Below the pieces are notes generated by a model. It made no database searches, had not been told where the DNA came from, and worked only from the letters and a program-made list of their open reading frames with translations. A stretch of DNA of 64,000 nt from Candidatus Omnitrophota bacterium (GTDB taxonomy: Bacteria; Omnitrophota; Gorgyraeia; Zapsychrales; JAKLDJ01), in NCBI GenBank assembly GCA_022703585.1, contig JAKLDJ010000004.1, positions 71,594 through 135,593 on the forward strand, written 5' to 3'. How positions within the stretch are numbered: the first letter of the stretch is position 1; each line of letters opens with the position of its first letter. The translations under genes were made by a program, and so were the position numbers. Shown here piece by piece: positions 30,898 through 48,617 of the stretch.

Positions 30898-31370
30898 GCA
30901 CCTACGAGTGGGACACGATTTCAAAAGTTGTTTTGACTATTCTCTTGTCGGGCTTAATCGGCGCCGAACGGGAAATTCGGCACAAGGGAGCGGGCTTAAG
31001 AACACACATTTTAGTGGGGGTGGGTTCGGCACTGATTGTATTGACTTCCTTTCATATTTCTGATACATATAAAAATGTAACCTTTATCGACCCGACCCGC
31101 ATGATTGCCGGCGTGGTTACCGGCATCGGCTTTTTGTGCGCCGGTACCATTATTCTCCAGGGCAATACACGCGTCATCGGGCTTACAACCGCCGCCAGCC
31201 TCTGGATTGTCTCGGGGGTCGGTATCGCCATCGCATCGGGCCATTACATCGGCGGGATAACGGTTGCTTTACTTGTCTTCTCCACTTTAGTCTGGTTAAA
31301 ACCGATTGAAAGAGTTTTGGCAAACCGATTTGGAAGTACTAACAAAGGAGGCGAAAATGGCAATGCGTGA
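30894..31370 (+). CDS. MgtC/SapB family membrane protein
   Basis: GLIGAEREIRHKGAGLRTHILV motif typical of MgtC. ATG at 30894 overlaps the tsaD stop (ATGA). Confidence 0.8.
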   Translation: MSTYEWDTISKVVLTILLSGLIGAEREIRHKGAGLRTHILVGVGSALIVLTSFHISDTYKNVTFIDPTRMIAGVVTGIGFLCAGTIILQGNTRVIGLTTAASLWIVSGVGIAIASGHYIGGITVALLVFSTLVWLKPIERVLANRFGSTNKGGENGNA

Positions 31371-31860
31371 TCGCAGAGATCCTGAACGCGCCATTGAAAT
31401 CAGCGCGGATATGCAGGGAACCTTGGCATTTAAAGACCCCGTCAACCTTAAAATTACGGGAAAGTTTAACGGCACCCTGGACACCAAAGGAACATTGACC
31501 GTCGGAGAAACGGCATCCGTTGAAGCCCATATTAACGGCGAAAATATTATTATTGCCGGAAAAATTAAAGGGGACGTCACCGCCCGAAAGATGCTGGTCT
31601 TAATGCCCACGGCGACCTTAAACGGCAACATCGCTACACCAAAGCTCAACATCGTCGAAGGGGCAATCTTCCAGGGAAAGTGCCAGATGTTCGACGAGTA
31701 TCTTGATTTAGACGGACTGGCAAAATACCTGGAGATTGATATGACATCCCTAACGGAGCTCGCCAATACCGGAAAAATACCGGGGACAAAAAACGGTAAC
31801 GCCTGGCGGTTTGAACGCACCAAGATTGACGAATGGGCGGCATCCGAGAAAGTGCATTAA
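31357..31860 (+). CDS. Bactofilin-domain protein fused to a C-terminal excisionase-family HTH (HTH_17-like)
   Basis: The beta-helical bactofilin core ends with EGAIFQGKCQM, matching the bactofilin signature. The C-terminal LDLDGLAKYLEIDMTSLTELANTGKIPGTKNGNAWRFERTKIDEW matches the excisionase-type HTH pattern. AGGAGG RBS upstream of the ATG at 31357. Confidence 0.75.
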   Translation: MAMRDRRDPERAIEISADMQGTLAFKDPVNLKITGKFNGTLDTKGTLTVGETASVEAHINGENIIIAGKIKGDVTARKMLVLMPTATLNGNIATPKLNIVEGAIFQGKCQMFDEYLDLDGLAKYLEIDMTSLTELANTGKIPGTKNGNAWRFERTKIDEWAASEKVH

Positions 31861-32597: not shown

Positions 32598-32710
32598 CAA
32601 TGGCGCTTAATATTGCCTCAGACATCACCCGTCAGCCTTTTGGATTTGATGAAATTTATCCTTGATATTTATCCTTCTTTCGCTTAAAATCATCAACAAT
32701 TTAAAAATGC

Positions 32711-32756
32711 TTTTATTGGCGGGGTAGCTCAGCCCGATAGAGCACTCGGCTCATAC
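32711..32756 (+). repeat. attL-like direct repeat (7 nt upstream plus first 39 nt of the tRNA(CAT) gene)
   Basis: ttttattggcggggtagctcagcccgatagagcactcggctcatac is identical to 46325-46370. The copy diverges immediately after the anticodon loop. Confidence 0.85.
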
Positions 32757-32864
32757 GCTATAAAATTAGAAATTAAAATTCAATTTTTTACTCCCATCAT
32801 TAATTAAATCCTCCCAAATAACCTTCATTGATTAAGAATAAGTTTGTCATAACGCTAAAATGTT

Positions 32865-33773
32865 ATGAAATTAAACGATGCGTATGATGAATTTATCAAC
32901 TCAGCACTTTTGGAAAGATGTTTAGAGCAAACAACTATTGATTGGTATTCTCGTTGCATTCAGCCAGTATTTAAATACTTCCGCTACAACCTCATTCCGC
33001 TAGAAGTTGATTCTCTAACAGTCGAAAATCTAAGAAAATATTTTATTAGTTACAAACAAAAAGGAAACACTTCAAGGACTGTGCTTAATGCAATGCAGGG
33101 CACTAGGTCTTTTTGTAGTTTTCTACTCAAGAGGGGGTATTTGCAAAAAAATCCTTTCCTTGAACTTGAAAAACCAAAGCTACCTAAAACACTTCCTGAA
33201 TTCTTAGATGAAGAAGAGGCAAAAAAATTACTACAAGCATGTATTAATCTCAAAAGAACCTACAAATCTAGGTGGAGCAGAGACATTGCTATTATCGCTT
33301 TGTTTCTCTTTGCTGGTTTGCGCAAGAAAGAACTTTTAAACTTAAAACTAAACGATTTCAATCAAGAAAAAGGATATATCAAAGTTTCTGCAAAGAATAA
33401 AGAGAGATTAGTTCCATTATGCGATACAGCTAAATCATTTCTACTGGATTATCTGAAAATAAGACCCAAAAGAGTGCTGGTCGATAATATTTTTGTGTCT
33501 ACTAACAGAAAATCATCTGCACTAACGCAACAGGGGTTATACGATTTATTCCTGGATTTACGTAAGCTAGTACAGTTTAGGATAAAGAAAAAGCTTAGCC
33601 CCCAAATTCTGAGGCATACTTTTTGCACCTTAATGCTCCGAAATGGCGTAAATTTGCGGGATATTCAGCTTTTAGCAGGGCATTCGGATATATCTACTAC
33701 GGCAAGATTTTATTTGGGGTGTGATGAAAAACAGCTAAAAAGTGCGGTAGATAGACATCCGTTGAATATTTGA
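32865..33773 (+). CDS. int: Tyrosine-type site-specific recombinase/integrase
   Basis: C-terminal catalytic region LRHTFCTLMLRNGVNLRDIQLLAGHSDISTTARFY (R...HxxR...Y). N-terminal SAM-like core-binding domain. Confidence 0.9.
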   Translation: MKLNDAYDEFINSALLERCLEQTTIDWYSRCIQPVFKYFRYNLIPLEVDSLTVENLRKYFISYKQKGNTSRTVLNAMQGTRSFCSFLLKRGYLQKNPFLELEKPKLPKTLPEFLDEEEAKKLLQACINLKRTYKSRWSRDIAIIALFLFAGLRKKELLNLKLNDFNQEKGYIKVSAKNKERLVPLCDTAKSFLLDYLKIRPKRVLVDNIFVSTNRKSSALTQQGLYDLFLDLRKLVQFRIKKKLSPQILRHTFCTLMLRNGVNLRDIQLLAGHSDISTTARFYLGCDEKQLKSAVDRHPLNI

Positions 33774-33797
33774 TTTTACCAGAAGAAAGCGTATAAT

Positions 33798-36700
33798 ATG
33801 CGCATGTCCGCATTAGTCGAAGAAAGAATAAAGAGATGGAAAAACAAATTAATAGACCTATCTAAACGTAATCGACTCCTCAATTTTAAGCCCACCAAAA
33901 CAACCACTATTCAGATTGTAGACGAAATTCCATCAGAAGCTTATCGTACTATTGTTCTAAATGAAAGTGTCATGTCTTTTCTTCCAGCAGATGGCGATAT
34001 CGAAGGCGACAAAGACAATACGGGTTCTTCCAGTCAGCTTGAAATAAAAGAATTTCAAGATTACGCTCAAGAAGAATTAGACACAAAACACACTGATTTA
34101 TACCTTCAAACAAACTTGGGTGAAAGCCATCTCGACAAGAATTTATTTCGCATTACTTCAATCGCTACATCGGTTATGGAAGAACAAGGTTATAACTCTT
34201 TGTTTTTGGCATTAGGTTTTTTGGAGTGGTATGAATCAAAAGATTCGGATGTTAAGTTTAGGTCTCCTATCCTTTTAATTCCTGTGCAATTAAACAGAAA
34301 ATCAGTCAAAAGTGATTATACTTTGAGTTTTGGTGAAGATGCGCCTATTTTGAATCCTGCATTAATATATATGCTTTCGCTTGATTTTGGCATTGATTTA
34401 GAGGACATAAGCGAAGAATTAGAACAAATTGAACCCAGAGAAATATTCAGAAAAATACAGGAAGCGATTCAGGAATTTGAACGTTGGAAAGTAACTAATG
34501 ATATCTTTTTAAGTTTGTTTTCATTTACGAAATTTATTATGTTTAAAGATTTAGAAAAGAATATGGGCACGCTCATTGATAATAAAGTTATCCAAATTAT
34601 TTGTGGTGTGGGGAGAGAAGAAAATATAGCCTTGGACGACATTTGCCCATTAGGAGAAATTGAGAAAAATACGAAACCGGAGAAAACTTTTCAAATTCTT
34701 GATGCAGACTCAAGCCAACAAAGAGCAATTCTCGTAGTCAAAAAAGGACATAACCTTATTATCGAAGGCCCCCCAGGAACAGGAAAGTCGCAAACAATAG
34801 CCAACATGATTGCGGAAAGTCTAACAGAAGGGAAGAAAGTATTATTTGTGAGTGAGAAAATGGCAGCTCTTGAGGTTGTAAAGAATCGGCTTGAATTAGC
34901 CGGTATTGGAGATTATTGCTTAGAACTGCATAGCCGTAAGACTAATAAAAAAAGGGTAGCTGAGGAACTTGGAAGGGTGATGGAACAACGAAAAAAGCCC
35001 GACCATAGCCATAATGATGAATTAGCTAAATTAGAGAGATTGCGTTCAGAATTAAATCGCTACGTATCAGATTTGCATAAAATATTTGGCGGGCTTCAGA
35101 TGACCCCGTACCAAGCAATTGGGATAGTTAATGCACATCCAGATATGCCAGACTTAGAATACATGTTTAATAACACCAAAGAGTGGTCAAAAGATAAATT
35201 TGATATAATCTGTGAACTTTTTGAGAAATTAAGTCGAAATATATTGAATATCGGACAACCACGATTGCATCCTTGGTTCGGTACAAGTCTTATCGAATTA
35301 GTTTATTCTGACAAAACAAATCTAAGAAACCATTTCAATAACATAAGTAGAATAGTTTCTGAGCTAAAAATTAGTATTGATGCATTGAGTGAAATCAGTT
35401 CATTTGGTGATGTAAAAACTATTTCCGATATTCAAGAATTGTTAGATGCATCTGAAATTTTGAAACTTTCGCCTAACGTAGCAAGTGATTTGCTAAAAGA
35501 TAAACGTTGGAATGATATCAGTGCAGATGTGAGACAAGCTATTAGTGCAGTACAAACATTTAATACTTTTGAGAAGAAATATTCAAGCCAGTATAAAATG
35601 ACGGTGTTGAATGAAAACATTGAGGAGATTCTCCAAAGATATAAAACTTATACGAGTAACATGTTTTTTGTATTTAAATTTAGTTTCTGGAAAGATAGTA
35701 AAGTTCTCAAGAGTCATTTTACAGGTAAGAGAAAAATTAACCTAAAGGAACTAATCAAGGAATTAGACGAATTATTTCTTTGGAAAAAGTCTGCACAGCA
35801 AATAGACGATTTTAGTAAAAATGGAAATGAGCTTTTTGGTGAACGATGGAGAGGGCGTAAGTCCAGTGGCGAAGAACTCCAAAAGTTCTCAGAATGGATT
35901 GTCAAATTTAGATATCATGTAATTAAGAATCATTTTAAAGATAAGGTTTTTGAAAGCAGCAAAGATAAATCTTCTCTTGAAGATTTACAAACGAAAGTAA
36001 AAAACAACTTGGATGAATTTAATGGTGTTTTAAGCTCAATCAATAGCATCGTAAAATTCGATTATAAATTAGCTTTTAGTACTAAGCTCTGCGAACATAA
36101 TGACCTTGATATGATAAGAGGGAAATTAAATAAGATGAGCGAGTCGATGGAAGAAGTAGACCCTTGGCTAAGCTTTCAGAGAGTATACCAAGAATGTGAG
36201 AAGGAGGGGTTAACTGAATTTATTGATGTGCTTTTAGCCAAAGATATTAAACCAGAAGCATACGTGACGGCTTTTAAATGTCAATTCTTACGATGTTGGT
36301 TGGATGAGGTTTTCTCTGAGAGAGATAGATTAAGAAATTTTCAAGGTAAAAACCATGAACAATTGATTGAGCAATTCAAACAATTAGATTGCAAACAAAT
36401 TGAATTGGCAAAGGTTCGAATCCAACATCTTCTTTCTGGAAATTATGATTCAAGTTGGAAAGGAGCTCAGAGTTCTGAGAGAGGAATACTGGAGCGTGAA
36501 GTTAGAAAAAAAAGAGCACATAAGCCTCTTAGAAAGTTATTTAAAGAAATACCTCACTTGTTATTATCACTAAAACCCTGTTTAATGATGAGTCCTTTAA
36601 CTGTCGCACAGTTTTTGGAGCCAGACTTATTCGATTTTGACTTGGTTATTTTTGATGAAGCTAGCCAAGTGCCTCCTCAGGACAGTATTGGAGCAATTAT

Positions 36701-38498
36701 GCGTGGTAAGCAAATAGTTATTGCAGGTGACGCTAAGCAGTTGCCACCAACTTCATTTTTTCAATCAACGGTATTGGATACTGAAGATGATGATGAATTT
36801 GATGAGTATATCCCAGAAGATTTAGATAGCATTCTAGATGAATGTGCGTCAGTTGGCTTGCCTCGGACTTTATTAGAATGGCATTACAGAAGCAAACACG
36901 AGTCTTTAATCGCATATTCGAACAAATATTATTATGAAAATAGATTAAATACTTTTCCTAATTCAATAGATGTGAGTGATACGCTTGGAATTAAATTCAA
37001 TTATTTTCCAGAGTCACAGTACCGTAAGGGCGGTGTAAATATTCTTGAAGCACAAGAAGTTGCTAAAAGAGTGTTTCAACATTTTAAGGAGAATCCTGAT
37101 ATAAGTTTAGGTGTGGGGACGTTCAGTATCAAACAAAAATATGCCATAGAGGATGCTGTTGAAGAATTAAGAAAGAACGATACAAGCTTAGAAGACTTGT
37201 TTTCTCCGGATAGGCCAGAGCATTTCTTTGTTAAGAATCTAGAATCAATACAGGGAGATGAGCGAGACGTAATCTTTATTAGTATTGGATATGGTAAGGA
37301 TGATTCTGGAAAATTGCCAATGAGATTTGGACCTATTAATCAACTGGGTGGAGAGCGAAGGCTTAATGTTCTTATTACGCGAGCAAGAAGACGATTAGAA
37401 ATCTTCAGCTCAATACGAGGCTCCGACTTTGACTTGACTAAAACAGAAAGTGAGGGAGTGCACCTTCTCAAGAAATATCTCGATTATGCTGAGCTGGGAA
37501 GAAGCGTACTGCTTCAGGATATCGAATATTCGAATTCATCTAGTTATTCTGACTCTCCATTCGAGGAGGCAGTATATGAATCTTTAGTCAGGGCAGGATT
37601 TAAGGTTCATCAACAAGTTGGGTGTTCAGAATATAGAATTGATATGGCTATCGTCGATGTTGAATTACCGGGCAAGTATGTACTTGGCATTGAATGTGAT
37701 GGAGCAAATTATCATTCAAGTATTACAGCAAGAGATAGGGATAGACTGAGACAGCAGGTCTTAGAGGGCCTGGGATGGAATATTTATCGAATTTGGTCTA
37801 CCGATTGGTTTAAAAATAAGAAGAAGGAAACAGAAAGATTGATTGAGGCAATTAGAGAAAGCCAGAAGGGAAATAGTAAAAAAAAACTAAATAAATATAC
37901 TAGTTTTGAAATAAAACTCAATTCCGCCTCCACAGAGACATTATCGAATAAAGATAGGAAATTGGTAGATTATCAATTAACTCCCGTGGATTCCATCAGA
38001 ACATCAGATTTTTATTATCAATCAGATGAAGTTCTAGCTCAAATTTTAATTAAAATAGTCAAGTGTGAGGGGCCGATTTTTTATGAAGAAGCATGGAGGA
38101 GATTAATCCAACACTGGGGGATGCGGTCTGTAGGCAGTAGGATTCGACTCAAATTAAAAGGCTTAGAGCAATACTGCTTAAATAATAAGAAATTTGAGAA
38201 ACGAAAAGATTTTTATTGGCTTAATAAGCATCAAGAATTGAAGATTAGGAACAGAGACGTTAACGATGTTTATAAAAAGATTGAGTATGTTGCCCCAGAG
38301 GAAGTCCAAGAAGCAGTGAAATATGTTTTAAATATGGAGTACTCAATACCACTAGTTTCTTTAATATCTCAAACAGCTAAATCATTAGGCTTCCATAGGA
38401 TTGGTGATGACGTTTATTCATATATTAAGAAAGCGATTGATTTGCTTATAAAAAATGAAGATTTGTATGAAGACAACGGCAATATAAGGATTAAGTAA
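33798..38498 (+). CDS. Giant helicase-nuclease: DUF4011-like N-terminus, Upf1-like SF1 helicase (AAA_11/AAA_12), Vsr/DUF559-like PD-(D/E)xK nuclease and DUF3320-like tail
   Basis: 1566 aa. SF1 motifs: Walker A EGPPGTGKSQT, Walker B VIFDEASQV, motif III IAGDAKQLPPT, motif V IQGDERDVIFIS, motif VI NVLITRARRRLEIF. C-terminal endonuclease-like block: FEEAVYESLVRAGFKV...EYRIDMAIVD...LGIECDGANYH. Confidence 0.8.
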   Translation: MRMSALVEERIKRWKNKLIDLSKRNRLLNFKPTKTTTIQIVDEIPSEAYRTIVLNESVMSFLPADGDIEGDKDNTGSSSQLEIKEFQDYAQEELDTKHTDLYLQTNLGESHLDKNLFRITSIATSVMEEQGYNSLFLALGFLEWYESKDSDVKFRSPILLIPVQLNRKSVKSDYTLSFGEDAPILNPALIYMLSLDFGIDLEDISEELEQIEPREIFRKIQEAIQEFERWKVTNDIFLSLFSFTKFIMFKDLEKNMGTLIDNKVIQIICGVGREENIALDDICPLGEIEKNTKPEKTFQILDADSSQQRAILVVKKGHNLIIEGPPGTGKSQTIANMIAESLTEGKKVLFVSEKMAALEVVKNRLELAGIGDYCLELHSRKTNKKRVAEELGRVMEQRKKPDHSHNDELAKLERLRSELNRYVSDLHKIFGGLQMTPYQAIGIVNAHPDMPDLEYMFNNTKEWSKDKFDIICELFEKLSRNILNIGQPRLHPWFGTSLIELVYSDKTNLRNHFNNISRIVSELKISIDALSEISSFGDVKTISDIQELLDASEILKLSPNVASDLLKDKRWNDISADVRQAISAVQTFNTFEKKYSSQYKMTVLNENIEEILQRYKTYTSNMFFVFKFSFWKDSKVLKSHFTGKRKINLKELIKELDELFLWKKSAQQIDDFSKNGNELFGERWRGRKSSGEELQKFSEWIVKFRYHVIKNHFKDKVFESSKDKSSLEDLQTKVKNNLDEFNGVLSSINSIVKFDYKLAFSTKLCEHNDLDMIRGKLNKMSESMEEVDPWLSFQRVYQECEKEGLTEFIDVLLAKDIKPEAYVTAFKCQFLRCWLDEVFSERDRLRNFQGKNHEQLIEQFKQLDCKQIELAKVRIQHLLSGNYDSSWKGAQSSERGILEREVRKKRAHKPLRKLFKEIPHLLLSLKPCLMMSPLTVAQFLEPDLFDFDLVIFDEASQVPPQDSIGAIMRGKQIVIAGDAKQLPPTSFFQSTVLDTEDDDEFDEYIPEDLDSILDECASVGLPRTLLEWHYRSKHESLIAYSNKYYYENRLNTFPNSIDVSDTLGIKFNYFPESQYRKGGVNILEAQEVAKRVFQHFKENPDISLGVGTFSIKQKYAIEDAVEELRKNDTSLEDLFSPDRPEHFFVKNLESIQGDERDVIFISIGYGKDDSGKLPMRFGPINQLGGERRLNVLITRARRRLEIFSSIRGSDFDLTKTESEGVHLLKKYLDYAELGRSVLLQDIEYSNSSSYSDSPFEEAVYESLVRAGFKVHQQVGCSEYRIDMAIVDVELPGKYVLGIECDGANYHSSITARDRDRLRQQVLEGLGWNIYRIWSTDWFKNKKKETERLIEAIRESQKGNSKKKLNKYTSFEIKLNSASTETLSNKDRKLVDYQLTPVDSIRTSDFYYQSDEVLAQILIKIVKCEGPIFYEEAWRRLIQHWGMRSVGSRIRLKLKGLEQYCLNNKKFEKRKDFYWLNKHQELKIRNRDVNDVYKKIEYVAPEEVQEAVKYVLNMEYSIPLVSLISQTAKSLGFHRIGDDVYSYIKKAIDLLIKNEDLYEDNGNIRIK

Positions 38499-38524
38499 AA
38501 TATGTTTTAATAAATATACAATTT

Positions 38525-38734
38525 ATGAATGACCTATTTGATGAATTCTTAGAATATGATTTTACTATGGGGGTTGATGTTGTGAAGTGCCCGCATTGCG
38601 GTGGTGACGTGCAATGCAGCCTTTTCATTGATAGCGAAGTTGAATGTTCAGGGTGTGGAAAAAAATTTCATAAGGATGAATTAAGAGCAAATCGTAAGAA
38701 TCCTAAAGACACAATACCTAAACAGCCGAATTAG
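38525..38734 (+). CDS. Small zinc-ribbon protein
   Basis: 69 aa with CPHCGG...CSGCGKKFH (two CxxC pairs). 26 bp downstream of the helicase-nuclease gene. Confidence 0.5.
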   Translation: MNDLFDEFLEYDFTMGVDVVKCPHCGGDVQCSLFIDSEVECSGCGKKFHKDELRANRKNPKDTIPKQPN

Positions 38735-38777
38735 GTCGAGAAAAGGTTCTGTCTTTATATTATAGGGCATAGAAACT

Positions 38778-41309
38778 ATGTTTAATTTCTTCAAATTTCA
38801 AAATTATCGCTCTTACTGGAAAATAAGAAATTTGGTTTTATTATCTAAATTTTGGATACATAGGTTGTTTTTTCAAGGTAATTTAAAAATAAAAGACGCT
38901 CAGGAAGAGTTGTCAATAGTTACTCACCTAACATGGCTTGCTTCAAAAACCATTCTTTTTTCTATTCTTATCGTAGTATCTTGTGAATCATTCGAAAAAG
39001 CAATATTAAAATTTCTCCCTACTAATACAACAATCCTTCTAGCGGGAATGCACGACTTAGTTATAAGAAACTCCAGTTCTTTGGAGAATTTTATCATGAC
39101 GATTGCTTCGATACTAGGCGTGTTCTTGGGTCTTTACTTTACTGCAATTAGTATCGTAGCTAGCTCGGTATTTACAGCTGTGCCGAGCAATGTTAGAGAG
39201 TTGTACTTAAAAGAGAAAATTGGGAATACCTATATACGGATATTGGCTATCCTTTTAGCAATTTCGATTATAATCTTTGGCTGTCGGATATTTGGCTATT
39301 ACCCAAGCACGCTGCTAACCGTTTTAATGCTGATTTTTAGCTGTGTCAGCATATTCGCATTTGTAATGTTGGGGGTTAGAGCCTTTTCCTTCTTCGACCC
39401 CACTGTGTTAGTAGATATAATTTTTGCGGATTTATATGCAGATATAAGATTGGCGAGTGTAAGTGGCCTAAGGTGGCTCGATTCTAACTTTCAGTCTCAT
39501 TACCATAAGCTTGCATCAAAAAACGTAAACACCCTTGCTAATTTGGTCGAAATATGTCTAAAAAATCCTCATTTATACAAGAAATCTGTCCCGTTGCTAT
39601 CATGGCGTCTATGCTATTTTTTAAAAGATTATCAAATGCAAAAAGCCCGAATACCTACTGATAGTTACTGGTTTTCACGTATACCAAAATATAAAGACAC
39701 CTTCATCGTAGACGACACAACTTTAACAGTAGCATTACAAACTCAAACTTCTATTCAACCGGAATCTATAACTGATAATTATTGGCTGGAAGATGAAATT
39801 TTTGAAATCCTTACGAATATGCTTAGCATTATGTTAAATAATCACAATATTATAATCTCTGCCGATATTTTAGATGGTATTAATAAATATTTTGAAGATT
39901 TGGGAGAGAAACTGGAGGGTAAGAAATGCTGCGATATGTTTAAGAAAATAGAAGCAGTAATGGAACCTTATTTTCTAAGTCTTTCTGAAGAAAAATGTAA
40001 AGGAATAGCGGATGTAAATTTTGCTCTGTTTGATAGATATAACATGCTTCTGTTGTCTTGCGCGATGGGATTCAATAAATTTATTCGTGAATTCAAAACA
40101 TCTTCCTTTATGCAAAACATAGATTCCATTTTGTGGGAGGATAGGGGTGCTATTTATCGAAACTCTATGGTGCCGATGCTATTGGAAAGGCTAGAATTCC
40201 TCCAAAAACGCCTCGAATTTGAACAGAAAGTAGAAGGGGAGTTTGTTAGCCCTACTTGGTACAGAAGACAGTTACTTAGTAATAAAATTGGCTTAATAGT
40301 GAACGAAGTTTTTGAATCAATGATGAGTTCATTGCAAAATTTTTATGTTAATAGTTCCAGCGCACTTTTAAACAAAAAAGCAGTTATCTTAACAACATAT
40401 AGGGCAAAAAGAGGTCTCGAAGTATTCTGGAAAATGCAAACCCATATTCTGCATCTCAAGAAACTGATTGAAAATCTCGAAAAATTTAACATAGAAAAAG
40501 AATTGTTTTGGCCAAAGTGGGATTGGGATGTTATTGAGAAGAAAATCGATAAAAATAATGATGCCCTCATACAACAAGAAGCTAAATGCCTTCCGGCACT
40601 ATCTATCATAAATAAAACAGAGAATGAGCCAGACCTCTTCGGCGAAACATATCATAAAATCTGTGAAGAATGTTTTGCATCTTTGGCAAATAATAAAGAT
40701 GAAAAATTCTCCACAATATTTCATTCCTTATTTATAGGTGCTCTTCAAGCGCATGACCGCCTTAGAATTTCGTATAAAGACCGTGACGCCAGAACTCAAA
40801 TATTAATTTCATTTCAGCCATTAGCAGACCTTATAGAAGTAAGTGGCTATGCCAAAATATATTCTGAGTTGTTCTCTTCTCCAAAACTATGGGAAACGTG
40901 CCAGGAATGTTGGAATAATTATTTAAATAATAAAGAAAAGAAAGATGAAACAATAGAATACATCATTACGAGTTACCAATATAAAAAGGCACAATTCGGT
41001 TTATTTGCACGAGATATTTGGAAAACAAATTGGCAAATTAAACTTAATAGAAAATTGCAAGAAATGAATTTAATCGACAGTATGTTTAGAGAAGACGATT
41101 ATCCGAGAAAGCCAAAAGAGAGACTTGCGGATAAAAGTCCTTTTATCCGAACTCTGTGCAGAGGGAGATATGAACCATTTATTCGTGCTTCAGAAATTTT
41201 TCTCCTCATTTATTTTGTAAAACAACTTGGAGTTAAGAACTTTTCCGATAATCATAATTTTATTCGGCATTTGGAAGAGGAAGAAGCTAAGACCAATGTT
41301 ACGAAATAA
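38778..41309 (+). CDS. Large multi-pass membrane protein (≈6 N-terminal TM helices + ~600-aa cytoplasmic helical region), function unknown
   Basis: 843-aa ORF with hydrophobic helices between residues ~45-230 and a Lys/Glu-rich alpha-helical remainder. No recognisable catalytic motif. Confidence 0.6.
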   Translation: MFNFFKFQNYRSYWKIRNLVLLSKFWIHRLFFQGNLKIKDAQEELSIVTHLTWLASKTILFSILIVVSCESFEKAILKFLPTNTTILLAGMHDLVIRNSSSLENFIMTIASILGVFLGLYFTAISIVASSVFTAVPSNVRELYLKEKIGNTYIRILAILLAISIIIFGCRIFGYYPSTLLTVLMLIFSCVSIFAFVMLGVRAFSFFDPTVLVDIIFADLYADIRLASVSGLRWLDSNFQSHYHKLASKNVNTLANLVEICLKNPHLYKKSVPLLSWRLCYFLKDYQMQKARIPTDSYWFSRIPKYKDTFIVDDTTLTVALQTQTSIQPESITDNYWLEDEIFEILTNMLSIMLNNHNIIISADILDGINKYFEDLGEKLEGKKCCDMFKKIEAVMEPYFLSLSEEKCKGIADVNFALFDRYNMLLLSCAMGFNKFIREFKTSSFMQNIDSILWEDRGAIYRNSMVPMLLERLEFLQKRLEFEQKVEGEFVSPTWYRRQLLSNKIGLIVNEVFESMMSSLQNFYVNSSSALLNKKAVILTTYRAKRGLEVFWKMQTHILHLKKLIENLEKFNIEKELFWPKWDWDVIEKKIDKNNDALIQQEAKCLPALSIINKTENEPDLFGETYHKICEECFASLANNKDEKFSTIFHSLFIGALQAHDRLRISYKDRDARTQILISFQPLADLIEVSGYAKIYSELFSSPKLWETCQECWNNYLNNKEKKDETIEYIITSYQYKKAQFGLFARDIWKTNWQIKLNRKLQEMNLIDSMFREDDYPRKPKERLADKSPFIRTLCRGRYEPFIRASEIFLLIYFVKQLGVKNFSDNHNFIRHLEEEEAKTNVTK

Positions 41310-42279
41310 AAAAATACACCAAGACGAAAAAAGTTCGATGAAATCCATTTATTACACTCCTTTGGAGCATCGAAGGGATGTGTACAGCTCTTTTTATAAT
41401 CACATGCTAACCGAAGATATTCATTTGGGCATAATGCCCTTTGGCGGAAGAACCAAAAATGAGTTGTTTAAAGTAGCAGTTAAACCACAGGATGCGGAAA
41501 TCGAGAATTTAATAAAAGATAGTTTACTTACGCATCACGGCGAACCGTATGATTTAAAAGAAGCGATTTGCGACTTTATTGACGAAGCTGCTGCATTACT
41601 AGGATACGATGGCGTAGCTTATTACGAAATTGTATATTATACGACTTCCAAAAAGCCGACACGATTTGAGTTGCACCGTATTATCAACAGAAATATAAAA
41701 GATACGTTTGGATTATACTGGCAGTATATCCCGAGTGCTGCACGAAAATATATAGAAACGGATAAGAAATTCATCTGGCTACCTAAGAGGAGAATTATTA
41801 AAATAAAATTTCCCAGTATAATTGGTGGTTTAAATTCTCAACGAACATTAATCCACAACCTAACATGGCTGAGCGAATGTAGCGTAACACCGAAATTTGC
41901 AATGGAAGACATGAAAAAACAAAAGCAAACAAACGATTATGATTTCGTAGTTTACCAGAGAAACAAGAACATATTTTTAGCTAGAATAACGCAACGTTTA
42001 GGATGGTCTGCTCGAGGCGAATTGAATGATTATACATTAGATATTTATCAGTTATACCGATACCTAAAATTTGAGAAAACCAAAGCAATTATCCGAGAAA
42101 CTGTTTTAGGCAATCTTAATAAAGCACTAGCTACTATCGGTAAAGAAATTGGTTTTAATGCAACAATCGAAATAAGCGGTATTCCTTCAGCATCAGATTT
42201 TGATAATTACATAGATAAGCTTCTTTCGGGAGAAATGCCATTTGCCAAGGTTGTCGAGATTATGAAATATGATTGGTAA
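41296..42279 (+). CDS. Hypothetical protein, translationally coupled to the upstream membrane protein
   Basis: ATG at 41296 overlaps the preceding stop by 14 nt. 327 aa with no recognised domain. Confidence 0.5.
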   Translation: MLRNKKIHQDEKSSMKSIYYTPLEHRRDVYSSFYNHMLTEDIHLGIMPFGGRTKNELFKVAVKPQDAEIENLIKDSLLTHHGEPYDLKEAICDFIDEAAALLGYDGVAYYEIVYYTTSKKPTRFELHRIINRNIKDTFGLYWQYIPSAARKYIETDKKFIWLPKRRIIKIKFPSIIGGLNSQRTLIHNLTWLSECSVTPKFAMEDMKKQKQTNDYDFVVYQRNKNIFLARITQRLGWSARGELNDYTLDIYQLYRYLKFEKTKAIIRETVLGNLNKALATIGKEIGFNATIEISGIPSASDFDNYIDKLLSGEMPFAKVVEIMKYDW

Positions 42280-42618
42280 TAGCACTATTTGTTTCCAGAG
42301 AAAAACGCGAGATTGCCGATTAAGGCAGAAAATAGCTACCGATTAGTTAGAGGTCTATGATAAAATACCGATAAATTAACCTGATGTGGAAATGGCAGCA
42401 TAAAAATTTCAGAGAGGGAGGTTTACAGAGTAAAATATTTTAAATATTTAGGAACATAGCTTTTCCTAATTAATAAACCAACTTGTGAGAGGAAGAGACT
42501 GTGTCCTGGGCACTTCGGTGCTTGGGGCAAGCGGTCTTTCGCTTTTACTCACAAGTTGGGCGTTAGACTTAAAAATGCTTGCCCTTTTTTATTTGGGTAA
42601 GCCTAAAAGGAGGGGACA

Positions 42619-43131
42619 ATGATAGCATCGCTAGTAACTTTAATAATTGTTATTGGGTCATCGATTTGGATAGCTATTGATGCACATCGAAACAAGATTT
42701 CCACTGACAATAAGCCGTACCGGATAAATAGCGGTGCTGTGACTTGGTTTTTTGCTTGTCTCTTATTCTGGATTTTTGTACTCCCTGCCTATCTCTTCAA
42801 GAGATTCAAACATCTAAAAGCCCAAGGAAAAAACTCTATCCTAGCAACTGTAGTGGGGATTATTCTGTTAGCAGTTCCAATCATGATGTTTACTGGCATC
42901 ATGAAGATGCCCACCTTAGACCTCCAAGAACAGGTTAAGCAAAGCATAATAGAGACGTGGTCAAGAGAGCCAACGATGGCAAATACTCAAATTCAGTCCT
43001 TTACGTTAATTCACAAAAGCAACAACCAGTATGAGGGTTTACTTGAAGTCACGATGAATGGGGTGGCTACAAGATTTCTCATAGATGTCACGTACGATGG
43101 TAGGAAATTTATGTGGCAAATTAGGCAATAA
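42619..43131 (+). CDS. Small membrane protein (2-3 TM helices + C-terminal soluble domain)
   Basis: 170 aa with GGAGGGG RBS and hydrophobic segments at residues ~5-25, 40-60 and 70-95. Confidence 0.5.
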   Translation: MIASLVTLIIVIGSSIWIAIDAHRNKISTDNKPYRINSGAVTWFFACLLFWIFVLPAYLFKRFKHLKAQGKNSILATVVGIILLAVPIMMFTGIMKMPTLDLQEQVKQSIIETWSREPTMANTQIQSFTLIHKSNNQYEGLLEVTMNGVATRFLIDVTYDGRKFMWQIRQ

Positions 43132-43627
43132 TCTCTGGCATAGCTTTTTAAACATTTTGTAGTCTAAGAACTTATCAAAACTGCTTCGAAAAGCATATTA
43201 TATTATTCAAAAGTTTCCTATAAAGCATCAAGCCCCACCAATCTTTCCCCGAAAATACATCGAAGAAAACCACTTTGTAAATCTAATTAAATATCATAAA
43301 TCATTTATTTGCAACAGGTTACTGTTAGTCACTACAGATTTTTATACAAAAAATAGGCGTATTCAGAGAAAGATAGGGTAGGTAGAGCTAAATTTCAGAC
43401 CGGGGTTGAGCGAAGAGCGACCCACCGGGTATTGGTCAACCATCAAAGAGTAGTCACGTAGACTACTAGTCGATGGCTATCAGTGCTGCCTAGCAAATCA
43501 CATGTTGCTCAAGAATTCGTTGAACCTAGCCTATGCCGGAGCGCAAATAAGCAGCTCCAAATTTAATCTGCCAACTATTTCTAAATGTTTTTCTCGTCGA
43601 GAAATCAAGTTTTTCAAAAAAAAGTAC

Positions 43628-43656
43628 TTGACAAAATTATTTTTGTGTTCTATAAT
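43628..43656 (+). promoter_or_regulatory. Consensus sigma70 promoter (TTGACA-N17-TATAAT) inside the island
   Basis: ttgacaaaattatttttgtgttctataat has perfect hexamers with 17-nt spacing. It reads into the iteron-like repeats and the small ORF / repO-like gene. Confidence 0.6.
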
Positions 43657-43689
43657 TTGCTTGTAACATGTTGGTGCTGAATGACTTGC

Positions 43690-43817
43690 GTGGATTTTTT
43701 GCGGACGAAAAGTGGATTTTTCATGGAAATAGAGTGGATTTTTCGTAATATATCTGAAAGGAGGTGATAATATTTAAAGAATAAAAAAATAAAAGAAAAC
43801 GGATAAATCGTGGATTT
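43690..43817 (+). repeat. Iteron-like direct repeats GTGGATTTTT (x3 at ~21-23-bp spacing, plus a fourth degenerate copy)
   Basis: gtggattttt occurs at 43690, 43710 and 43733, with cgtggattta at 43808. Two-helical-turn spacing, located immediately upstream of a lambda-O-like initiator gene. Confidence 0.55.
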
Positions 43818-43937
43818 AGCGATTTATAGTAGCCCTTACTCTGTCTGGTGTAGATTAGGGGCATTTTTTTAACATAACCTTCTGATTCTTAGCTGAATCG
43901 GGGGGTTTTTTATTAAAGAATAAAGAAGGAGGGCTCT

Positions 43938-44156
43938 ATGAATAACAAACCAAAACAAAAAATCAGATTCGGCGATGTCAATTTATGCGTCTGGGAAAAT
44001 ACGATTAAGATAAAGGATAATGCTGTCCCGGTTTTGACATATACTTTCAGCAAATCGTATCGTTCGAGAGGTAAATTCAAATACATGAGAAACTTTCAAA
44101 AACAGGATTTACCTAACATCACCAAAGCGATAGAAATAATTTCTGGTTCTCGCTGA
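43938..44156 (+). CDS. Small hypothetical protein
   Basis: 72-aa ORF with AAGGAGGG RBS. Lys-rich and of no recognisable family. Confidence 0.4.
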   Translation: MNNKPKQKIRFGDVNLCVWENTIKIKDNAVPVLTYTFSKSYRSRGKFKYMRNFQKQDLPNITKAIEIISGSR

Positions 44157-44221
44157 GCAAAACTAGATAAAGAAAAAATATATATCAAAATACAACTTTA
44201 AAATAAAAAGGAGATAAAAAA

Positions 44222-45139
44222 ATGGACAATTTTAAAAACCTTTGGCAACCCTACGATGATAAGAAATCACTTTTGTGGACAAAAATTCCAAATTGCTTAT
44301 TGCTTTTTCTTATGCAAGGTAAGCAAAGGTTCACAGAAATTAGAATTATTTTATTAATTTGTCGTATGGGCTTCGGATTCAAAAGAGAGGAGACTAATTA
44401 TCTTGATTTGAAAGACTTTGAAAAAGCCACAGGATTAAATAAAAGCCAAGCTTCTAAGGCAATAAATTCACTCTTAAGCGCATATGTGATATTCCGCTAC
44501 TCGAAGAATGGTAACAAGTATAAGTATGCAGTTAATCTTTTGAAGCATGGCATAGAAATGAAGCATTTCCGAATTGGTAAAATGGATAGCCAAAAAGATA
44601 ATGGGATTTATCAGATTGGAAATATAGATTACCAATTAGACAATTATAACGGCTCGAAGAATGAGCTAATTCTATATAGTTCCAAGGGTTACAAGAATGT
44701 AAAAAACCCCTATATAAAAGAGGATAGAAAAGATGATATAAAAATAGATATAGCAAAAAGGCATGCCAGTAGTCCTGTTTCTAGCAGTCCTACTAGCAAT
44801 ACTTTAACTGGCAACGCTAGCCAAACTACCAAGAGTAAAAAATACAATAACACCATGGAATTAGCTCAGGATTTTGATAAAGAACTATATAAAGCAAATA
44901 TAGAAAAGGATGGTGAAAAATTGCTAATTAGATTCATAGAATTAGAGCATTCACAATTTCCCGACCAAAGGCAACCTTGGCTCATACCAAGTATTTATTG
45001 TGACTATACAGCCAGAAAAATAGCTGGATTAACTGAGGAGATGTATACCAAAGAGCTTAATAAAATTCTGGAAAATGCCAATAAGTTACGAAACGAATTA
45101 AACTCTAGATGTAGCGAATTACTAAAGAATAAAAAATAG
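44222..45139 (+). CDS. Replication initiator / replisome organiser, phage lambda O-like N-terminal winged-helix
   Basis: N-terminal segment TEIRIILLICRMGFGFKREETNYLDLKDFEKATGLNKSQASKAINSLLSAYVI follows the lambda O / phage_rep_org_N pattern (xxLLxIxRxTxGxxK...TGL...AIxxL). Adjacent to iteron-like repeats. Confidence 0.55.
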   Translation: MDNFKNLWQPYDDKKSLLWTKIPNCLLLFLMQGKQRFTEIRIILLICRMGFGFKREETNYLDLKDFEKATGLNKSQASKAINSLLSAYVIFRYSKNGNKYKYAVNLLKHGIEMKHFRIGKMDSQKDNGIYQIGNIDYQLDNYNGSKNELILYSSKGYKNVKNPYIKEDRKDDIKIDIAKRHASSPVSSSPTSNTLTGNASQTTKSKKYNNTMELAQDFDKELYKANIEKDGEKLLIRFIELEHSQFPDQRQPWLIPSIYCDYTARKIAGLTEEMYTKELNKILENANKLRNELNSRCSELLKNKK

Positions 45140-45219
45140 AATAATACATCTATCGCGTTTTTGCGAAGGAACATTTCCATTGACATTTGCTGAAGCATTT
45201 GTTATGGTATACCAAAACT

Positions 45220-45393
45220 ATGAAATACTATACCATAAGTCAACTTGCTAAAGAGCTTAAAGTGCATAAAAATACCATTTTCTATTGGGAGAAAACGGGT
45301 AAAATACCTAAACCCAAGAGAGAATCTGTAAGCGGTTATCGTGTTTGGACAGAGAAAGATGTAAAAAAGATAAGAGAGTCAAATTCGAGGTGA
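45220..45393 (+). CDS. MerR/excisionase-like HTH protein (candidate Xis or regulator)
   Basis: 57 aa. YTISQLAKELKVHKNTIFYWEKTGKIPKPKRESVSGYRVWTEKDVKKI follows the MerR-type/Xis pattern. Sits near attR. Confidence 0.5.
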   Translation: MKYYTISQLAKELKVHKNTIFYWEKTGKIPKPKRESVSGYRVWTEKDVKKIRESNSR

Positions 45394-45396
45394 AAA

Positions 45397-46215
45397 ATGA
45401 CAATAAATAACTACGATGAATCTCACATAGAACGAAAATATTTTATCGATGGACATATGTATAATTGTCCTTTCTGTAATATTAGAAATGTACAATACGA
45501 GATTTCTAATTCGGGAAGATTTTCTTGGTCACGTGAGCGAGATTGCTATTTTTATCTTGTCAAGTGCAGTCATTGCGACCACACTTCTTTTCATTTAAGT
45601 AATTATGATTTGGTTAGAAATTATGGTCATTTTGAAAATCCGCCAAAACAGCGTAAGATTATTCAAGGAGAAAATCAAAGCTTCAAAATTTTGAAAAATG
45701 GAGTAGAAGTCATGGAGCTTGATGAAGTATTCTTTTATCATCAGCCAACAAGCTTCTTCACAATAGATAACAGAATACCTGAAATTATACGAAATCTTCT
45801 TTCTGAAGCTGAAGGCTGTAGAAAAATGGATTATCTTGTGGGTGCTTCGGGCTGTTTAAGAAAAGCTATTTATGAATTGCTAGACTTACAAGAAATCGGC
45901 AACGAAGAAAATGATACTAAATTACCCTACGAGGAAAGAATAAAACGACTAAAAGGAAAATTTCCTAACATAGATTCGGAATATTTTGATATTCTTGCTG
46001 GAATACAAGGCATGACAAGCGATAACCTTCATGAAGGTTCTTGGGATAGCTTTGATTCTCGAACTCTAGCTCTATTAATAGAGACAACCAAAGAAATCTT
46101 ATATGAAATTTATGTTTTACCTGATGAAAAAAAGACAAAAAGGAACATAATAGCTAAAATGCGAGAACAATTTAAACAACAAAAATCAACAGCCGATACC
46201 GAATCAAAAACTTAA
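45397..46215 (+). CDS. Zinc-finger protein with C-terminal DUF4145-like helical domain
   Basis: N-terminal CPFCN...CSHCDH zinc ribbon. The C-terminal ~100 aa (LRKAIYELLDL...ILAGIQGMTSDNLHEG...) resembles a DUF4145-type module, recalled from memory. Confidence 0.4.
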   Translation: MTINNYDESHIERKYFIDGHMYNCPFCNIRNVQYEISNSGRFSWSRERDCYFYLVKCSHCDHTSFHLSNYDLVRNYGHFENPPKQRKIIQGENQSFKILKNGVEVMELDEVFFYHQPTSFFTIDNRIPEIIRNLLSEAEGCRKMDYLVGASGCLRKAIYELLDLQEIGNEENDTKLPYEERIKRLKGKFPNIDSEYFDILAGIQGMTSDNLHEGSWDSFDSRTLALLIETTKEILYEIYVLPDEKKTKRNIIAKMREQFKQQKSTADTESKT

Positions 46216-46324
46216 TTTAATAACAGAAAGGAGAAAGCATACTAGACAAATAATTCTTAGTCAATGGTTGTAAAAAATATTGAATTTTTGTCAATTTTAG
46301 CTTAGAATCCTTCAATTATATTAA

Positions 46325-46370
46325 TTTTATTGGCGGGGTAGCTCAGCCCGATAGAGCACTCGGCTCATAC
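46325..46370 (+). repeat. attR-like direct repeat (7 nt upstream plus first 39 nt of the intact tRNA)
   Basis: Identical 46-mer to 32711-32756. Confidence 0.85.
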
Positions 46371-46405
46371 CCGATTGGTCGAGAGTTTAAATCTCTCCCC
46401 CGCCA
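46332..46405 (+). tRNA. tRNA with CAT anticodon (elongator Met or Ile2/lysidine type)
   Basis: Hand-folded cloverleaf: acceptor GGCGGGG/CCCCGCC, D-arm GCTC-loop-GAGC, anticodon loop CTCATAC (CAT), T-arm GAGAG-TTTAAAT-CTCTC, discriminator A, no encoded CCA. G1-C72 rules out the initiator. tilS lies 1.2 kb downstream. Confidence 0.8.
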
Positions 46406-46488
46406 CTTTCTCTCACAAACCCCACCCGAAAATTCCGTAGATTACTTTGCCCCGTATCAGTATAATAAGGAAGCAAAGGAGGGGACCC

Positions 46489-47609: not shown

Positions 47610-48617
47610 GTGATAATGAACATTCTCGAGAAAACAAAAAAGACAATCCAACGGTATCAATTATTCAATCAGGGCGACCGGGTCCTGGTGGGCGTCTCCG
47701 GCGGCCCGGACTCAGTTGCGCTCTTATCGATCCTCAATGCACTACGCCATACGCTCAGCATCCATCTCGTTGTTGCCCATTTTAACCACAATCTTAGAAA
47801 AAATTCTGTCACCGACCAACGTTTTGTCGAAAACCTTGCCCGTAGCTTGCAATTACCCTTTATTTCGGCGCAGGGCCATTTGCGTAAATCAAGAAAGAAA
47901 AGTTCCGTGGAAGAAATCGCCCGAGAATCCCGTTTTAAGTTTCTGCTCAAGGCCGCCAAAAAACTTCGTGCCAATAAAATCGCACTCGGCCACACCCAAG
48001 ATGACTTGGCCGAAACTGTTTTGATGCGGATTTTACGCGGCACGGGACTAGGCGGGATGCGGGGAATTTTACCTAAGCGCACCCTGTATGGCATTATTTT
48101 TGTCCGGCCTTTAATCGAGACCGGGAAAAAGGATGTTTTGGATTTTCTAAAAGAACGAACGATCAAGTTCCGAATTGACCCGACCAACAAAACAACAAAA
48201 TTCTTTCGAAATAAAATCCGGAAGGAGCTTTTGCCTCTGCTTGAAAGAAAATACAGCAAAAATATCCGCCAGATCCTGGCTAATCTTTCGACAACCATCA
48301 CTGCCGATTACGATTACCTAGAACAAGAGTCCGGACGGCTATTTAGGACATTTTCCCCAAAAAACCGTTCTTTAAAAAACATCCGTTTCAATCTCCGGCA
48401 ACTGGAAAAAATTCACCCTTCTTTACAAAGGTCGTTAATCCGCCTCGCCATCGAAAATCTGAAAGGAGATACGCGGAAATTCGGTTTTGACCATATGAGC
48501 GAAATTGAAGATTTGCTTACCCATCGCCCCACGGGATCGGTTGTCCATCTGCCCTGCCGGATACAGGCACTTAAAGAAAAAACTCAACTATCACTGCGGC
48601 GTAAAACTACCGGATAG
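47610..48617 (+). CDS. tilS: tRNA(Ile)-lysidine synthetase
   Basis: PP-loop SGGPDS (LVGVSGGPDSVALLSIL) and TilS N-terminal domain organisation. Confidence 0.88.
   Translation: MIMNILEKTKKTIQRYQLFNQGDRVLVGVSGGPDSVALLSILNALRHTLSIHLVVAHFNHNLRKNSVTDQRFVENLARSLQLPFISAQGHLRKSRKKSSVEEIARESRFKFLLKAAKKLRANKIALGHTQDDLAETVLMRILRGTGLGGMRGILPKRTLYGIIFVRPLIETGKKDVLDFLKERTIKFRIDPTNKTTKFFRNKIRKELLPLLERKYSKNIRQILANLSTTITADYDYLEQESGRLFRTFSPKNRSLKNIRFNLRQLEKIHPSLQRSLIRLAIENLKGDTRKFGFDHMSEIEDLLTHRPTGSVVHLPCRIQALKEKTQLSLRRKTTG

Follow-up and report, generated by a model that had tools for sequence, protein, structure and literature searches.

A 13.6-kb integrative island in a Candidatus Omnitrophota chromosome, probably inserted at the anticodon loop of a tRNA-Met(CAT) gene and carrying the 5' side of its target

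We analyzed 64,000 nucleotides (nt) of a Candidatus Omnitrophota chromosome (contig JAKLDJ010000004.1; the whole 64-kb stretch is called “the window” below) and found that the block between positions 32,711 and 46,370 is, very probably, a 13.6-kb integrative island that a tyrosine integrase inserted into an elongator-type tRNA-Met(CAT) gene. According to this reading, strands were exchanged in the anticodon loop, and the attachment site of the element (attP) carried the 5' side of the target gene. The attachment sites at either end of the island (attL and attR) and the tRNA gene are located as follows.

32711..32756, + strand: attL, the left copy of a 46-bp direct repeat, with the displaced tRNA 5' fragment at 32718-32756
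32750..32756, + strand: anticodon-loop heptamer CTCATAC in attL, the putative strand-exchange (overlap) region, common to the identity blocks of both polarities described below
46325..46370, + strand: attR, the right copy of the 46-bp direct repeat, which forms the 5' part of the intact tRNA
46332..46406, + strand: intact tRNA(CAT), called by ARAGORN and Rfam, with a 5' half and loop that would be element-derived and a 3' half that would be host-derived

A single tRNA is present in the window according to ARAGORN, the tRNA-Met(CAT) at 46332-46406 on the + strand, and the Rfam tRNA model scores it at 62.4 bits. At the left repeat copy, no tRNA is called by ARAGORN or by Rfam, the latter having covered 28-50 kb and returned nothing besides 46332-46406. 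The initial annotation of this DNA had described the repeat as 39 nt of the tRNA 5' part plus 7 upstream nt, with the duplication stopping right after the anticodon loop, and our recount bears this out. The 46-mer TTTTATTGGCGGGGTAGCTCAGCCCGATAGAGCACTCGGCTCATAC occurs exactly twice in the window, at 32711-32756 and at 46325-46370, and it consists of the 7 nt upstream of the tRNA(CAT) followed by tRNA nt 1-39. No third copy with three or fewer mismatches exists in the window, and none arose in 100 shuffles. The two copies agree through the final base of the anticodon loop CTCATAC and differ at the base after it (G versus C), and past the loop, the 3' sides of the two junctions are unrelated (16/50 matches). 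The copies lie 13,614 bp apart, inside the 2-200 kb size range that Islander (PMC4383910) applies to islands in tRNA genes (tDNAs), and three further Islander features are found as well, namely an intact tDNA, a same-strand, 100%-identical 39-nt terminal fragment upstream of it, and an inner tyrosine integrase. The first base of the fragment is tRNA nt 1, and with the intact gene 13.6 kb downstream, it is on the side expected of a 5' fragment.

The tRNA is probably an elongator tRNA-Met and not an initiator, because its G1-C72 positions pair. We also take its GGCGGGG acceptor and CAUAC loop to resemble those of elongator Met in Bacillus. TilS, the lysidine synthetase for tRNA-Ile2(CAU), is encoded 1.2 kb downstream of the tRNA (47610-48617), and formally, an Ile2 identity is still allowed.

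The block between the repeats had been judged AT-rich by eye and coded on the + strand throughout, and the GC profile that the initial annotation called for agrees with the first judgment as the gene calls agree with the second. The GC content of 32757-46324 is 0.345, versus 0.476 in the left flank and 0.477 in the right flank, while the lowest value of any 13.6-kb interval outside the block, in the 64-kb window, is 0.472. The step in GC coincides with the repeats to within 250 nt. Ten open reading frames (ORFs) lie between the repeats, all ten on the + strand, and coding sequence makes up 88% of the block.

These properties bear on an origin without site-specific integration. In such a scenario, the left copy could be a tRNA pseudogene that arose by chance or by duplication, with the low-GC block acquired along some other path, or the assembly could be chimeric. 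ENA and JGI assemblies, produced independently and running across both junctions, match the window at 100% identity and thereby rule out an assembly chimera. We saw no excision product, and nothing more specific speaks for such an origin. The repeat ends exactly at the anticodon loop, which is the crossover site of related integrases, the integrase sits at the edge of the block, the GC step falls on the repeats, and a relative has an apparently empty site (see below); we therefore regard this origin as highly improbable. The proposal that the block is an integrative element carrying the tRNA 5' half was thus upheld by the GC step, the integrase at the edge, the relative with the flanks 494 nt apart and the tRNA-sited integrase family, to which we turn now.

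The integrase gene (int) adjoins the left repeat copy, as had been reported, and the two features that make up this end of the island are listed here.

32757..32864, + strand: integrase-proximal arm (P' arm), AT-rich, with a fold z-score of -0.01 and no stable RNA structure
32865..33773, + strand: tyrosine integrase of 302 aa, two-domain and XerD/XerA-like (Pfam PF00589, E=3e-28), beginning 108 nt after the left repeat

The integrase retains the residues R153, K177/179, R250, H273 and Y283, and Q247 occupies its first-His position, a substitution that is invariant across the integrase family. Its best relative in the PDB is XerD (1a0p), and XerC, XerD and XerA resolvases are its best relatives in both sequence and structure, with which it shares a two-domain build, a length of ~300 aa and the lack of a matched arm-binding domain. 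Unlike these resolvases, it reaches about half of the NCBIfam cut-offs (TIGR02224, 173.9 bits with a cut-off of 335; TIGR02225, 173.3 bits with a cut-off of 330), it lies at a low-GC island edge beside a split tRNA, and its family tracks tRNA targets, not dif sites. It also scores far below the cut-offs of the integron integrase models in NCBIfam. Judged by these scores, the window integrase is not a XerC/XerD dimer resolvase. No arm-binding domain was matched in it, and we infer that this may be the reason why either tRNA half can serve as the homology block. In the short arm upstream of int, a CATTGA motif is shared by the window and relatives, and neither a terminator nor a stable structure was found between the tRNA 5' fragment and int.

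The integrase belongs to a family of related enzymes. Homologues number ~75 at 53-79% identity, nearly all of them in metagenome-assembled genomes of Omnitrophota type, after which identity drops to the ~35% of XerD-like proteins; the P0002 integrase is 79% identical to that of the window. We compared the loci of ~20 relatives (given L numbers below), drawn from GTDB genomes, JGI metagenomes and an exact protein look-up. In ~18 of them, with integrases at 60-80% identity, an intact tRNA in the same orientation precedes int by 85-170 nt, the exceptions among loci with upstream DNA being L006 and L169. The target tRNAs are elongator-type Met, initiator-type Met and Arg (TCG, TCT and ACG). A distance tree groups the integrases by target tRNA and places the window enzyme in the Met group, nearest to L166 and L167 at 72%. 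Several elements also occupy the same chromosomal position as the island, with TsaD-MgtC-bactofilin-HTH17 genes upstream in L088, L086, L007 and L065, and with SNase-TilS genes downstream in L087.

Comparison with these relatives indicates where the strands were exchanged. [quoted passage not shown] Beyond the other side of the loop, their sequences are unrelated (8-15/45 matches). The window repeat, by contrast, runs from position -7 to the last base of the loop. On the sequence comparison, therefore, the window element mirrors its relatives: int keeps its position and direction with respect to the loop, but the identity block is on the 5' side of the loop, the intact tRNA is at the far end and a 5' fragment adjoins int. 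Strand exchange most likely took place in the 7-nt anticodon loop, because no other segment belongs to the identity blocks of both polarities.

The islands of the usual polarity (L065, L087 and L089 in tRNA-Met; L012, L014 and L010 in tRNA-Arg; L008, L011 and L013 in initiator tRNA) thus share much with the window island, including integrases that are 60-72% identical, an int gene that comes first and is co-oriented with the tRNA, a small size (6-10 kb in these islands), a loop crossover and, for several of them, the same host locus. Unlike the window island, they have the tRNA 3' half beside int and a 3' fragment at the far end, and their cargo (Fic, MarR, NAD-binding and other proteins) is unrelated to that of the window.

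In many of them, but not in the window element, the stretch that separates the tRNA from int contains an inverted pseudo-5' half. Roughly half of the relatives that target Met or initiator Met have, in the 85-170-nt spacer, such an inverted, diverged copy of the 5' half of the target tRNA, extending up to nt 1-41, including an inverted anticodon stem-loop, and matching the target type (Met versus initiator; each p<0.004 against shuffles). The copies were located in L167 (~242-277, within the 165-277 region), L065 (~3958-3997), L008 (9924-9949), L169 (~4122-4141) and L006 (2335-2377), and they occur in L013, L086, L088 and L170 as well. They are absent from the Arg clade, and a search for tRNA-half copies of this kind in the window found none. 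Possibly, these copies act as a second, inverted core site or as one strand of an RNA duplex that blocks read-through from the tRNA to int; they could also be relics of a rearrangement.

The host genes around the island, which have housekeeping roles, support its placement in a recurrent insertion site. The left flank encodes a polysaccharide deacetylase, TsaD, MgtC, a bactofilin-HTH protein (HTH, helix-turn-helix), a further HTH protein and a 117-aa BamE-like protein (p117), and the right flank encodes DoxX, an SNase-like protein, TilS and FtsH. The bactofilin is fused to a C-terminal HTH_17 domain (window 31306-31860) and is followed by a stand-alone HTH_17 protein, a pair that is kept beside the tRNA-Met hot spot in several Omnitrophota loci. 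In a 3275-nt ENA contig of ERZ27297570, from a related organism, the order is MgtC, bactofilin/HTH17, HTH17, a p117 homologue (49% identity), 494 nt and then DoxX, and in the relative L168, a tRNA-Met(CAT) lies directly upstream of DoxX-SNase-TilS-FtsH. As a probe of synteny, DoxX is of limited use, with homologues at 60-74% identity from many phyla and, in P0135, an unrelated context. Altogether, elements have landed repeatedly in Omnitrophota at this tRNA-Met locus, with TsaD-MgtC-bactofilin on one side and SNase-TilS-FtsH on the other.

The proposed mechanism follows from the polarity of the repeat. The attP would carry the 5' side of the target, namely a promoter-like region, the 7-nt leader and tRNA nt 1-39. 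Integration would then displace the host promoter and the host tRNA 5' half to attL, directly upstream of int, and a working tRNA would be rebuilt at attR from the 5' half of the island and the 3' half of the host. The predicted site in the host before integration (attB) reads ...CATCAACAATTTAAAAATGC + 46-mer + CCGATTGGTCGAGAGTTTAAATC..., and the predicted attP reads ...CCTTCAATTATATTAA + 46-mer + GCTATAAAATTAGAAATTAAAATTC.... Further predicted consequences are expression of the tRNA from a promoter-like site of the island, read-through from the displaced host tRNA promoter into int and the cargo, and a continued ability to excise. The two promoter-like sites that matter for this scheme are the following.

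32662..32690, + strand: host-side sigma-70-like promoter TTGATA-N17-TAAAAT, 10/12 consensus match, 27 nt before the 5' fragment and pointing into the island, with a putative promoter function
46280..46308, + strand: island-side sigma-70-like site TTGAAT-N17-TAGAAT, 9/12 in a consensus scan, with 23 nt between its -10 hexamer and the tRNA

The promoter region of the intact tRNA is island DNA, wherever in the repeat the crossover occurred, because the repeat holds only 7 nt upstream of the tRNA. The earlier statement that the host tRNA is preceded by element-supplied sequence thus follows from the geometry, and the promoter-like site that had been placed inside the island is indeed there, 2 nt away from its reported position (46280-46308 rather than ~46278-46306). 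As the actual promoter of the tRNA, this site is a candidate by consensus match. The host promoter block ATTTATCCTTGATATTT(A/T)TCC...CAACAATTT is 50/51 identical in the sister species L169, and L170 has TTGCAT-N17-TAAAAT 19 nt upstream of its tRNA-Met. Counted from the sequences, the distance from the -10 hexamer to the tRNA is ~19-27 nt for the host-side promoters of the window, L169 and L170, and 23 nt for the island site; sigma-70-type promoters at ~19-27 nt seem to be the norm for these tRNA genes. When the hexamers are aligned, the island and host promoter regions are identical at 23/46 positions, a score that only 19 of 13522 island positions equal, which puts the site ahead of 99.9% of the island in likeness to the host promoter, and this is consistent with a captured, diverged tRNA promoter. 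In a circular form, the 46280-46308 site would possibly serve as a promoter of int as well. At the other end, read-through from the host tRNA promoter via the 39-nt fragment into int and the co-oriented island genes is plausible.

Alternatively, the tRNA at attR could be made by read-through from the upstream island genes, starting at the host promoter at attL or at an internal promoter (e.g., 43628-43656) and followed by cleavage by RNase P and 3' processing. Every island gene is co-oriented with the tRNA, and no terminator-like site lies on the + strand between 45397 and 46331; moreover, the 9/12 match of the island site is not statistically distinctive. However, the 46280-46308 site is spaced like native promoters and resembles the host tRNA promoter in sequence, a terminator-like hairpin lies inside the island at 43876-43907, and read-through over 13.6 kb would be an unreliable way of expressing a tRNA. 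We therefore consider this route unlikely and retain the island-side site as the candidate promoter.

The sister species L169 provides a closer view of the same locus. Its host proteins are 74-95% identical and its flank DNA is 80-84% identical to those of the window, and the alignment stops exactly at the loop. L169 has the same host promoter, tRNA 5' half and loop, followed by 12 further identical nt, a damaged T-arm and acceptor, the inverted pseudo-5' half and then an integrase; ARAGORN calls no tRNA at this damaged copy. The integrase is 67% identical to that of the window and 79% identical to that of L166, and the contig ends inside int. A single ancient insertion shared with L169 by descent was considered and rejected, given flanks at 80-84% DNA identity up to the loop, int at 66% and the grouping of its integrase with other elements. 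L169 is thus a different element, and it shows that the int-proximal tRNA copy is non-functional in another member of the family too. It also hints at a route from the usual to the mirror polarity via an attP that spans the whole tRNA gene.

Such a route would refine, rather than replace, the integration proposed above. In this refinement, attP would once have held a complete tRNA with its promoter, acquired perhaps when an element excised imprecisely from a related host. Integration would then have yielded two complete copies, of which the left one, being redundant, decayed in its element-derived 3' half, with the mirror polarity as the outcome. The damaged full-length copy of L169, at the same locus and before a 67%-identical integrase, fits this history, as do the resemblance between the island promoter region and the host tRNA promoter and the fact that the int-proximal arm is normally the tRNA 3' half in relatives of the usual polarity. 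In the window itself, the first 25 nt of the P' arm past the attL loop agree with the tRNA 3' half in 13/25 bases, a level reached at only 47 of 13543 island positions; this match is weak, and its length was picked after viewing the sequence. On the other side, identity ends exactly at the loop edge, as a simple attP with the 5' half predicts without any decay, the L169 contig stops inside int and does not cover the far end, and the L169 integrase is nearer to elements of the usual polarity (79% to L166) than to the window element. A whole-tRNA ancestor is therefore possible, though we do not favor it over an attP that carried the 5' half from the start.

These observations can be joined into a more speculative proposal, which we regard as distinctly improbable. 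The carried tRNA half could flip within one arm-less, Xer-like integrase family, via an attP that spans the whole promoter-bearing tRNA gene; the mirror state would swap promoters, and the inverted pseudo-5' halves would sense the integration state or switch polarity. If this were true, the displaced, strong host tRNA promoter would drive int and the defense operon only when the element is integrated, the island look-alike promoter would keep the tRNA expressed, and L169 may be an intermediate.

Beyond the integrase, the island carries the following genes.

33798..38498, + strand: DUF4011 / SF1 helicase / MTES_1575 nuclease / DUF3320 protein, 1566 aa, candidate anti-phage protein of PDC-S37/ProA/Hhe type
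38525..38734, + strand: zinc-ribbon protein, 69 aa, with weak zinc-ribbon matches
38778..41309, + strand: 843-aa protein with no match in Pfam, NCBIfam, PHROGs, PADLOC or PDB
41227..42279, + strand: ORF called as 313-327 aa in public gene calls (start ~41296-41338), with no family match
42619..43131, + strand: putative membrane protein, 170 aa, with a weak cytochrome b561-like match below the Pfam cut-off
43938..44156, + strand: 72-aa protein, matched by phrog_21148 alone (E=2e-4)
44222..45139, + strand: replication-initiator-like protein with a phage O / DnaD-like N-terminal domain (Pfam PF04492, 30.3 bits, cut-off 28.7)
45187..45393, + strand: small MerR/HTH_17-type DNA-binding protein, candidate excisionase or regulator; 57 aa from 45220 in public calls
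45397..46215, + strand: 272-aa protein, possibly DNA-binding (phrog_1305 “DNA binding protein”, E=4e-7), with no PDB or Pfam match

The largest cargo gene is of a defense type. The 1566-aa protein matches PADLOC PDC-S37 (PDLC05009) at E=0, with residues 3-1563 aligned to profile positions 1-1544 of 1550, and it shares DUF4011, an SF1 helicase, an MTES_1575 nuclease and DUF3320 with the single-gene helicase-nucleases PDC-S37, ProA and Hhe. In NCBIfam, the Hhe match reaches E=7e-303, and the ProA match, which lacks the first ~355 profile positions at the N-terminus, stays just below its threshold (1474 bits, cut-off 1500). We thus describe the protein as a full-length PDC-S37 match with borderline ProA membership and a candidate role in defense. 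The 69-, 843- and ~313-aa ORFs that lie downstream of it could be partners in the same system.

Toward the right end, the protein encoded at 44222..45139 is also matched by an O-like replication initiation PHROG and has a 33%-identical homologue in the L086 island. The small protein at 45187..45393 matches Pfam MerR_1 (E=7e-11), phrog_66 “excisionase and transcriptional regulator” (E=3e-8) and PADLOC mad1 (E=1e-13). The 72-aa ORF and the rep-like gene are preceded by a 0.8-kb gap that contains a perfect TTGACA-N17-TATAAT consensus promoter on the + strand (43628-43656) and, after it, the strong terminator-like hairpin at 43876-43907.

By its gene content, the island is not a prophage. Among the PHROG matches, no virion structural or packaging genes were found, the families represented being limited to integrase, helicase, replication-O-like and HTH, and IMG/VR holds no integrase relative above 33% identity. 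Nor is the island a recognizable integrative and conjugative element or integrative and mobilizable element; no relaxase, type IV secretion, coupling or other conjugation family was matched in Pfam, NCBIfam or PHROGs, with the 843-, ~313- and 272-aa ORFs left without an assignment.

Several observations weigh against the reading of the block as an integrative island with a loop crossover and a 5'-side attP. The empty site, which the initial annotation proposed to seek in related genomes, is apparently present in a relative, in the contig with the flanks 494 nt apart, and the tRNA is presumed to lie in that gap; this site is known from gene coordinates only, although the adjacency of tRNA and DoxX that was expected of it is seen in L168. 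Within the species, neither an empty site nor a circular form nor an attP junction was found, and every same-species contig carries the island. No excisionase family is matched at a curated NCBIfam cut-off, with TIGR01764 giving 17.9 bits for the protein at 45187..45393. Finally, the island promoter site is a 9/12 match in AT-rich DNA, where 60 such sites are present versus 52 +/- 7 in shuffles. Because no empty site, circle or attP is seen in the species and all contigs carry the island, we treat its present-day mobility as putative.

It is accordingly possible, though not what we favor, that the element integrated as described and is now a non-mobile, vertically inherited defense islet. All 14-15 same-species contigs, found via the flanking proteins in several samples, carry the island, and those that were fetched, from three samples, are 99.98-100% identical to the window. 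Exact scans for the 39-nt tRNA 5' half in genome and metagenome contigs, and for its 33-nt core in viral contigs, returned no match and hence no attB, attP or second copy, and transfer genes recognizable by Pfam, NCBIfam or PHROGs are missing. Logan contigs are uninformative on polymorphism, because they stop 30 nt into the repeat, presumably owing to assembly at k=31. Yet the sampled population is clonal, such that the lack of polymorphism says little, and a 5' fragment that is non-coding and not under selection, while still identical at 46/46 positions, points to an integration in the recent past or to attachment sites that have been maintained. In addition, the integrase ORF with its catalytic residues, the excisionase-like HTH gene and the Rep-like gene are all intact. 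For these reasons, we retain the reading of an integrative island with a predicted ability to excise.

The configuration is a known minority and not a new mechanism, and it changes nothing in the understanding of site-specific integration. The integration point had been called unusual, which holds in degree, given the ~18 relatives with an intact tRNA beside int, and does not hold as a claim of novelty, given that 159 of 3919 tDNA islands in Islander (PMC4383910) have a 5' fragment (~4%) and 3760 have a 3' fragment; 2083 Islander islands have anticodon-centered sites. Integration at the 5'-distal part of a tRNA gene has been called “considerably less frequent” than at the 3' part, with bacterial and archaeal examples (PMC6563490). 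Among the latter, TKV4/MVV-type proviruses, pTN3 and CalSub-E1 duplicate the 5' part of the tRNA, as the window element does; unlike it, they belong to another domain of life and have other integrase types, a comparison that is made by description only.

Islands with a 5' fragment resemble that of the window in having an intact tDNA at one end, a co-oriented 5' fragment upstream, an inner tyrosine integrase and element-supplied upstream sequence. An island with a displaced 5' fragment, in the “reverse” orientation, was reportedly described by Zhao and Williams in 2002 (J Bacteriol 184:859), to judge from the title and from citing papers. The window island differs from known 5'-fragment islands in its Omnitrophota host, its small Xer-like integrase and the availability of close relatives of the opposite polarity for comparison. 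The anticodon loop is likewise said to define a class of tDNA integration sites, the “A” site of Williams (2002). Like the members of this class, the window element has the edge of its identity block at the loop, and the anticodon stem gives dyad symmetry around the 7-nt overlap; its assignment to this sublocation is by comparison of identity blocks.

The island thus illustrates clearly, and with relatives for comparison, the minority 5'-fragment mode of integration into tRNA genes; its sister elements, being of the opposite polarity, point to the anticodon loop as the crossover site. We know of almost no described mobile elements in Omnitrophota. For island finders, the example has a practical side: those that expect int beside the intact tRNA, or a 3' fragment, would misplace the side of this island or miss it.

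The tRNA itself has an uncommon sequence. By eye, the window tRNA-Met and those of L166, L167, L087 and L169 have a D-loop AGCC[C/T]GATA without GG and a T-loop TTTAAAT with U in place of C56, which suggests that an A19:U56 tertiary pair replaces G19:C56. The standard pair of GG and TTCGA is present in the Omnitrophota L088, L168, L089 and L170 at the same locus. If a tRNA is a chimera of element and host halves, its D-loop and T-loop would have to be of the same type. The C27-U43 mismatch was considered as a sign of a chimeric tRNA and rejected, as positions 27 and 43 also form a mismatch or wobble in the intact relatives L087, L167 and L166.

Other features were noted around the target tRNAs of the relatives. 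In L088 (9650-9849), L007 (9537-9850), L014 (9601-9799) and L102/L029 (9230-9418), the intact target tRNA is immediately preceded by short tandem repeats. They recur every ~80-150 nt, and each unit joins the promoter-proximal ~30 nt to the initial 8-14 nt of the tRNA; the 81-nt units of L088 also contain two 8-bp hairpins and the tRNA 3' acceptor strand (CTCGCCA), with a minihelix-like fold. In L006, a 4.9-kb contig binned as “Clostridia”, two integrases of the family lie head to head around one minus-strand tRNA-Met (1371-3565), and a plus-strand fragment made up of the anticodon loop and 3' part lies only ~17 nt before the second int; this arrangement could be a composite or plasmid-like form of these elements. 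Lastly, a motif, TTTCTCGTCG, which is absent from the window and L169, occurs 15-40 nt downstream of the tRNA in L166, L008, L010, L012, L014, L091, L013 and L170, i.e., in elements that target Arg, Met and initiator Met tRNAs, and it could be a binding site for an accessory protein or for the integrase.

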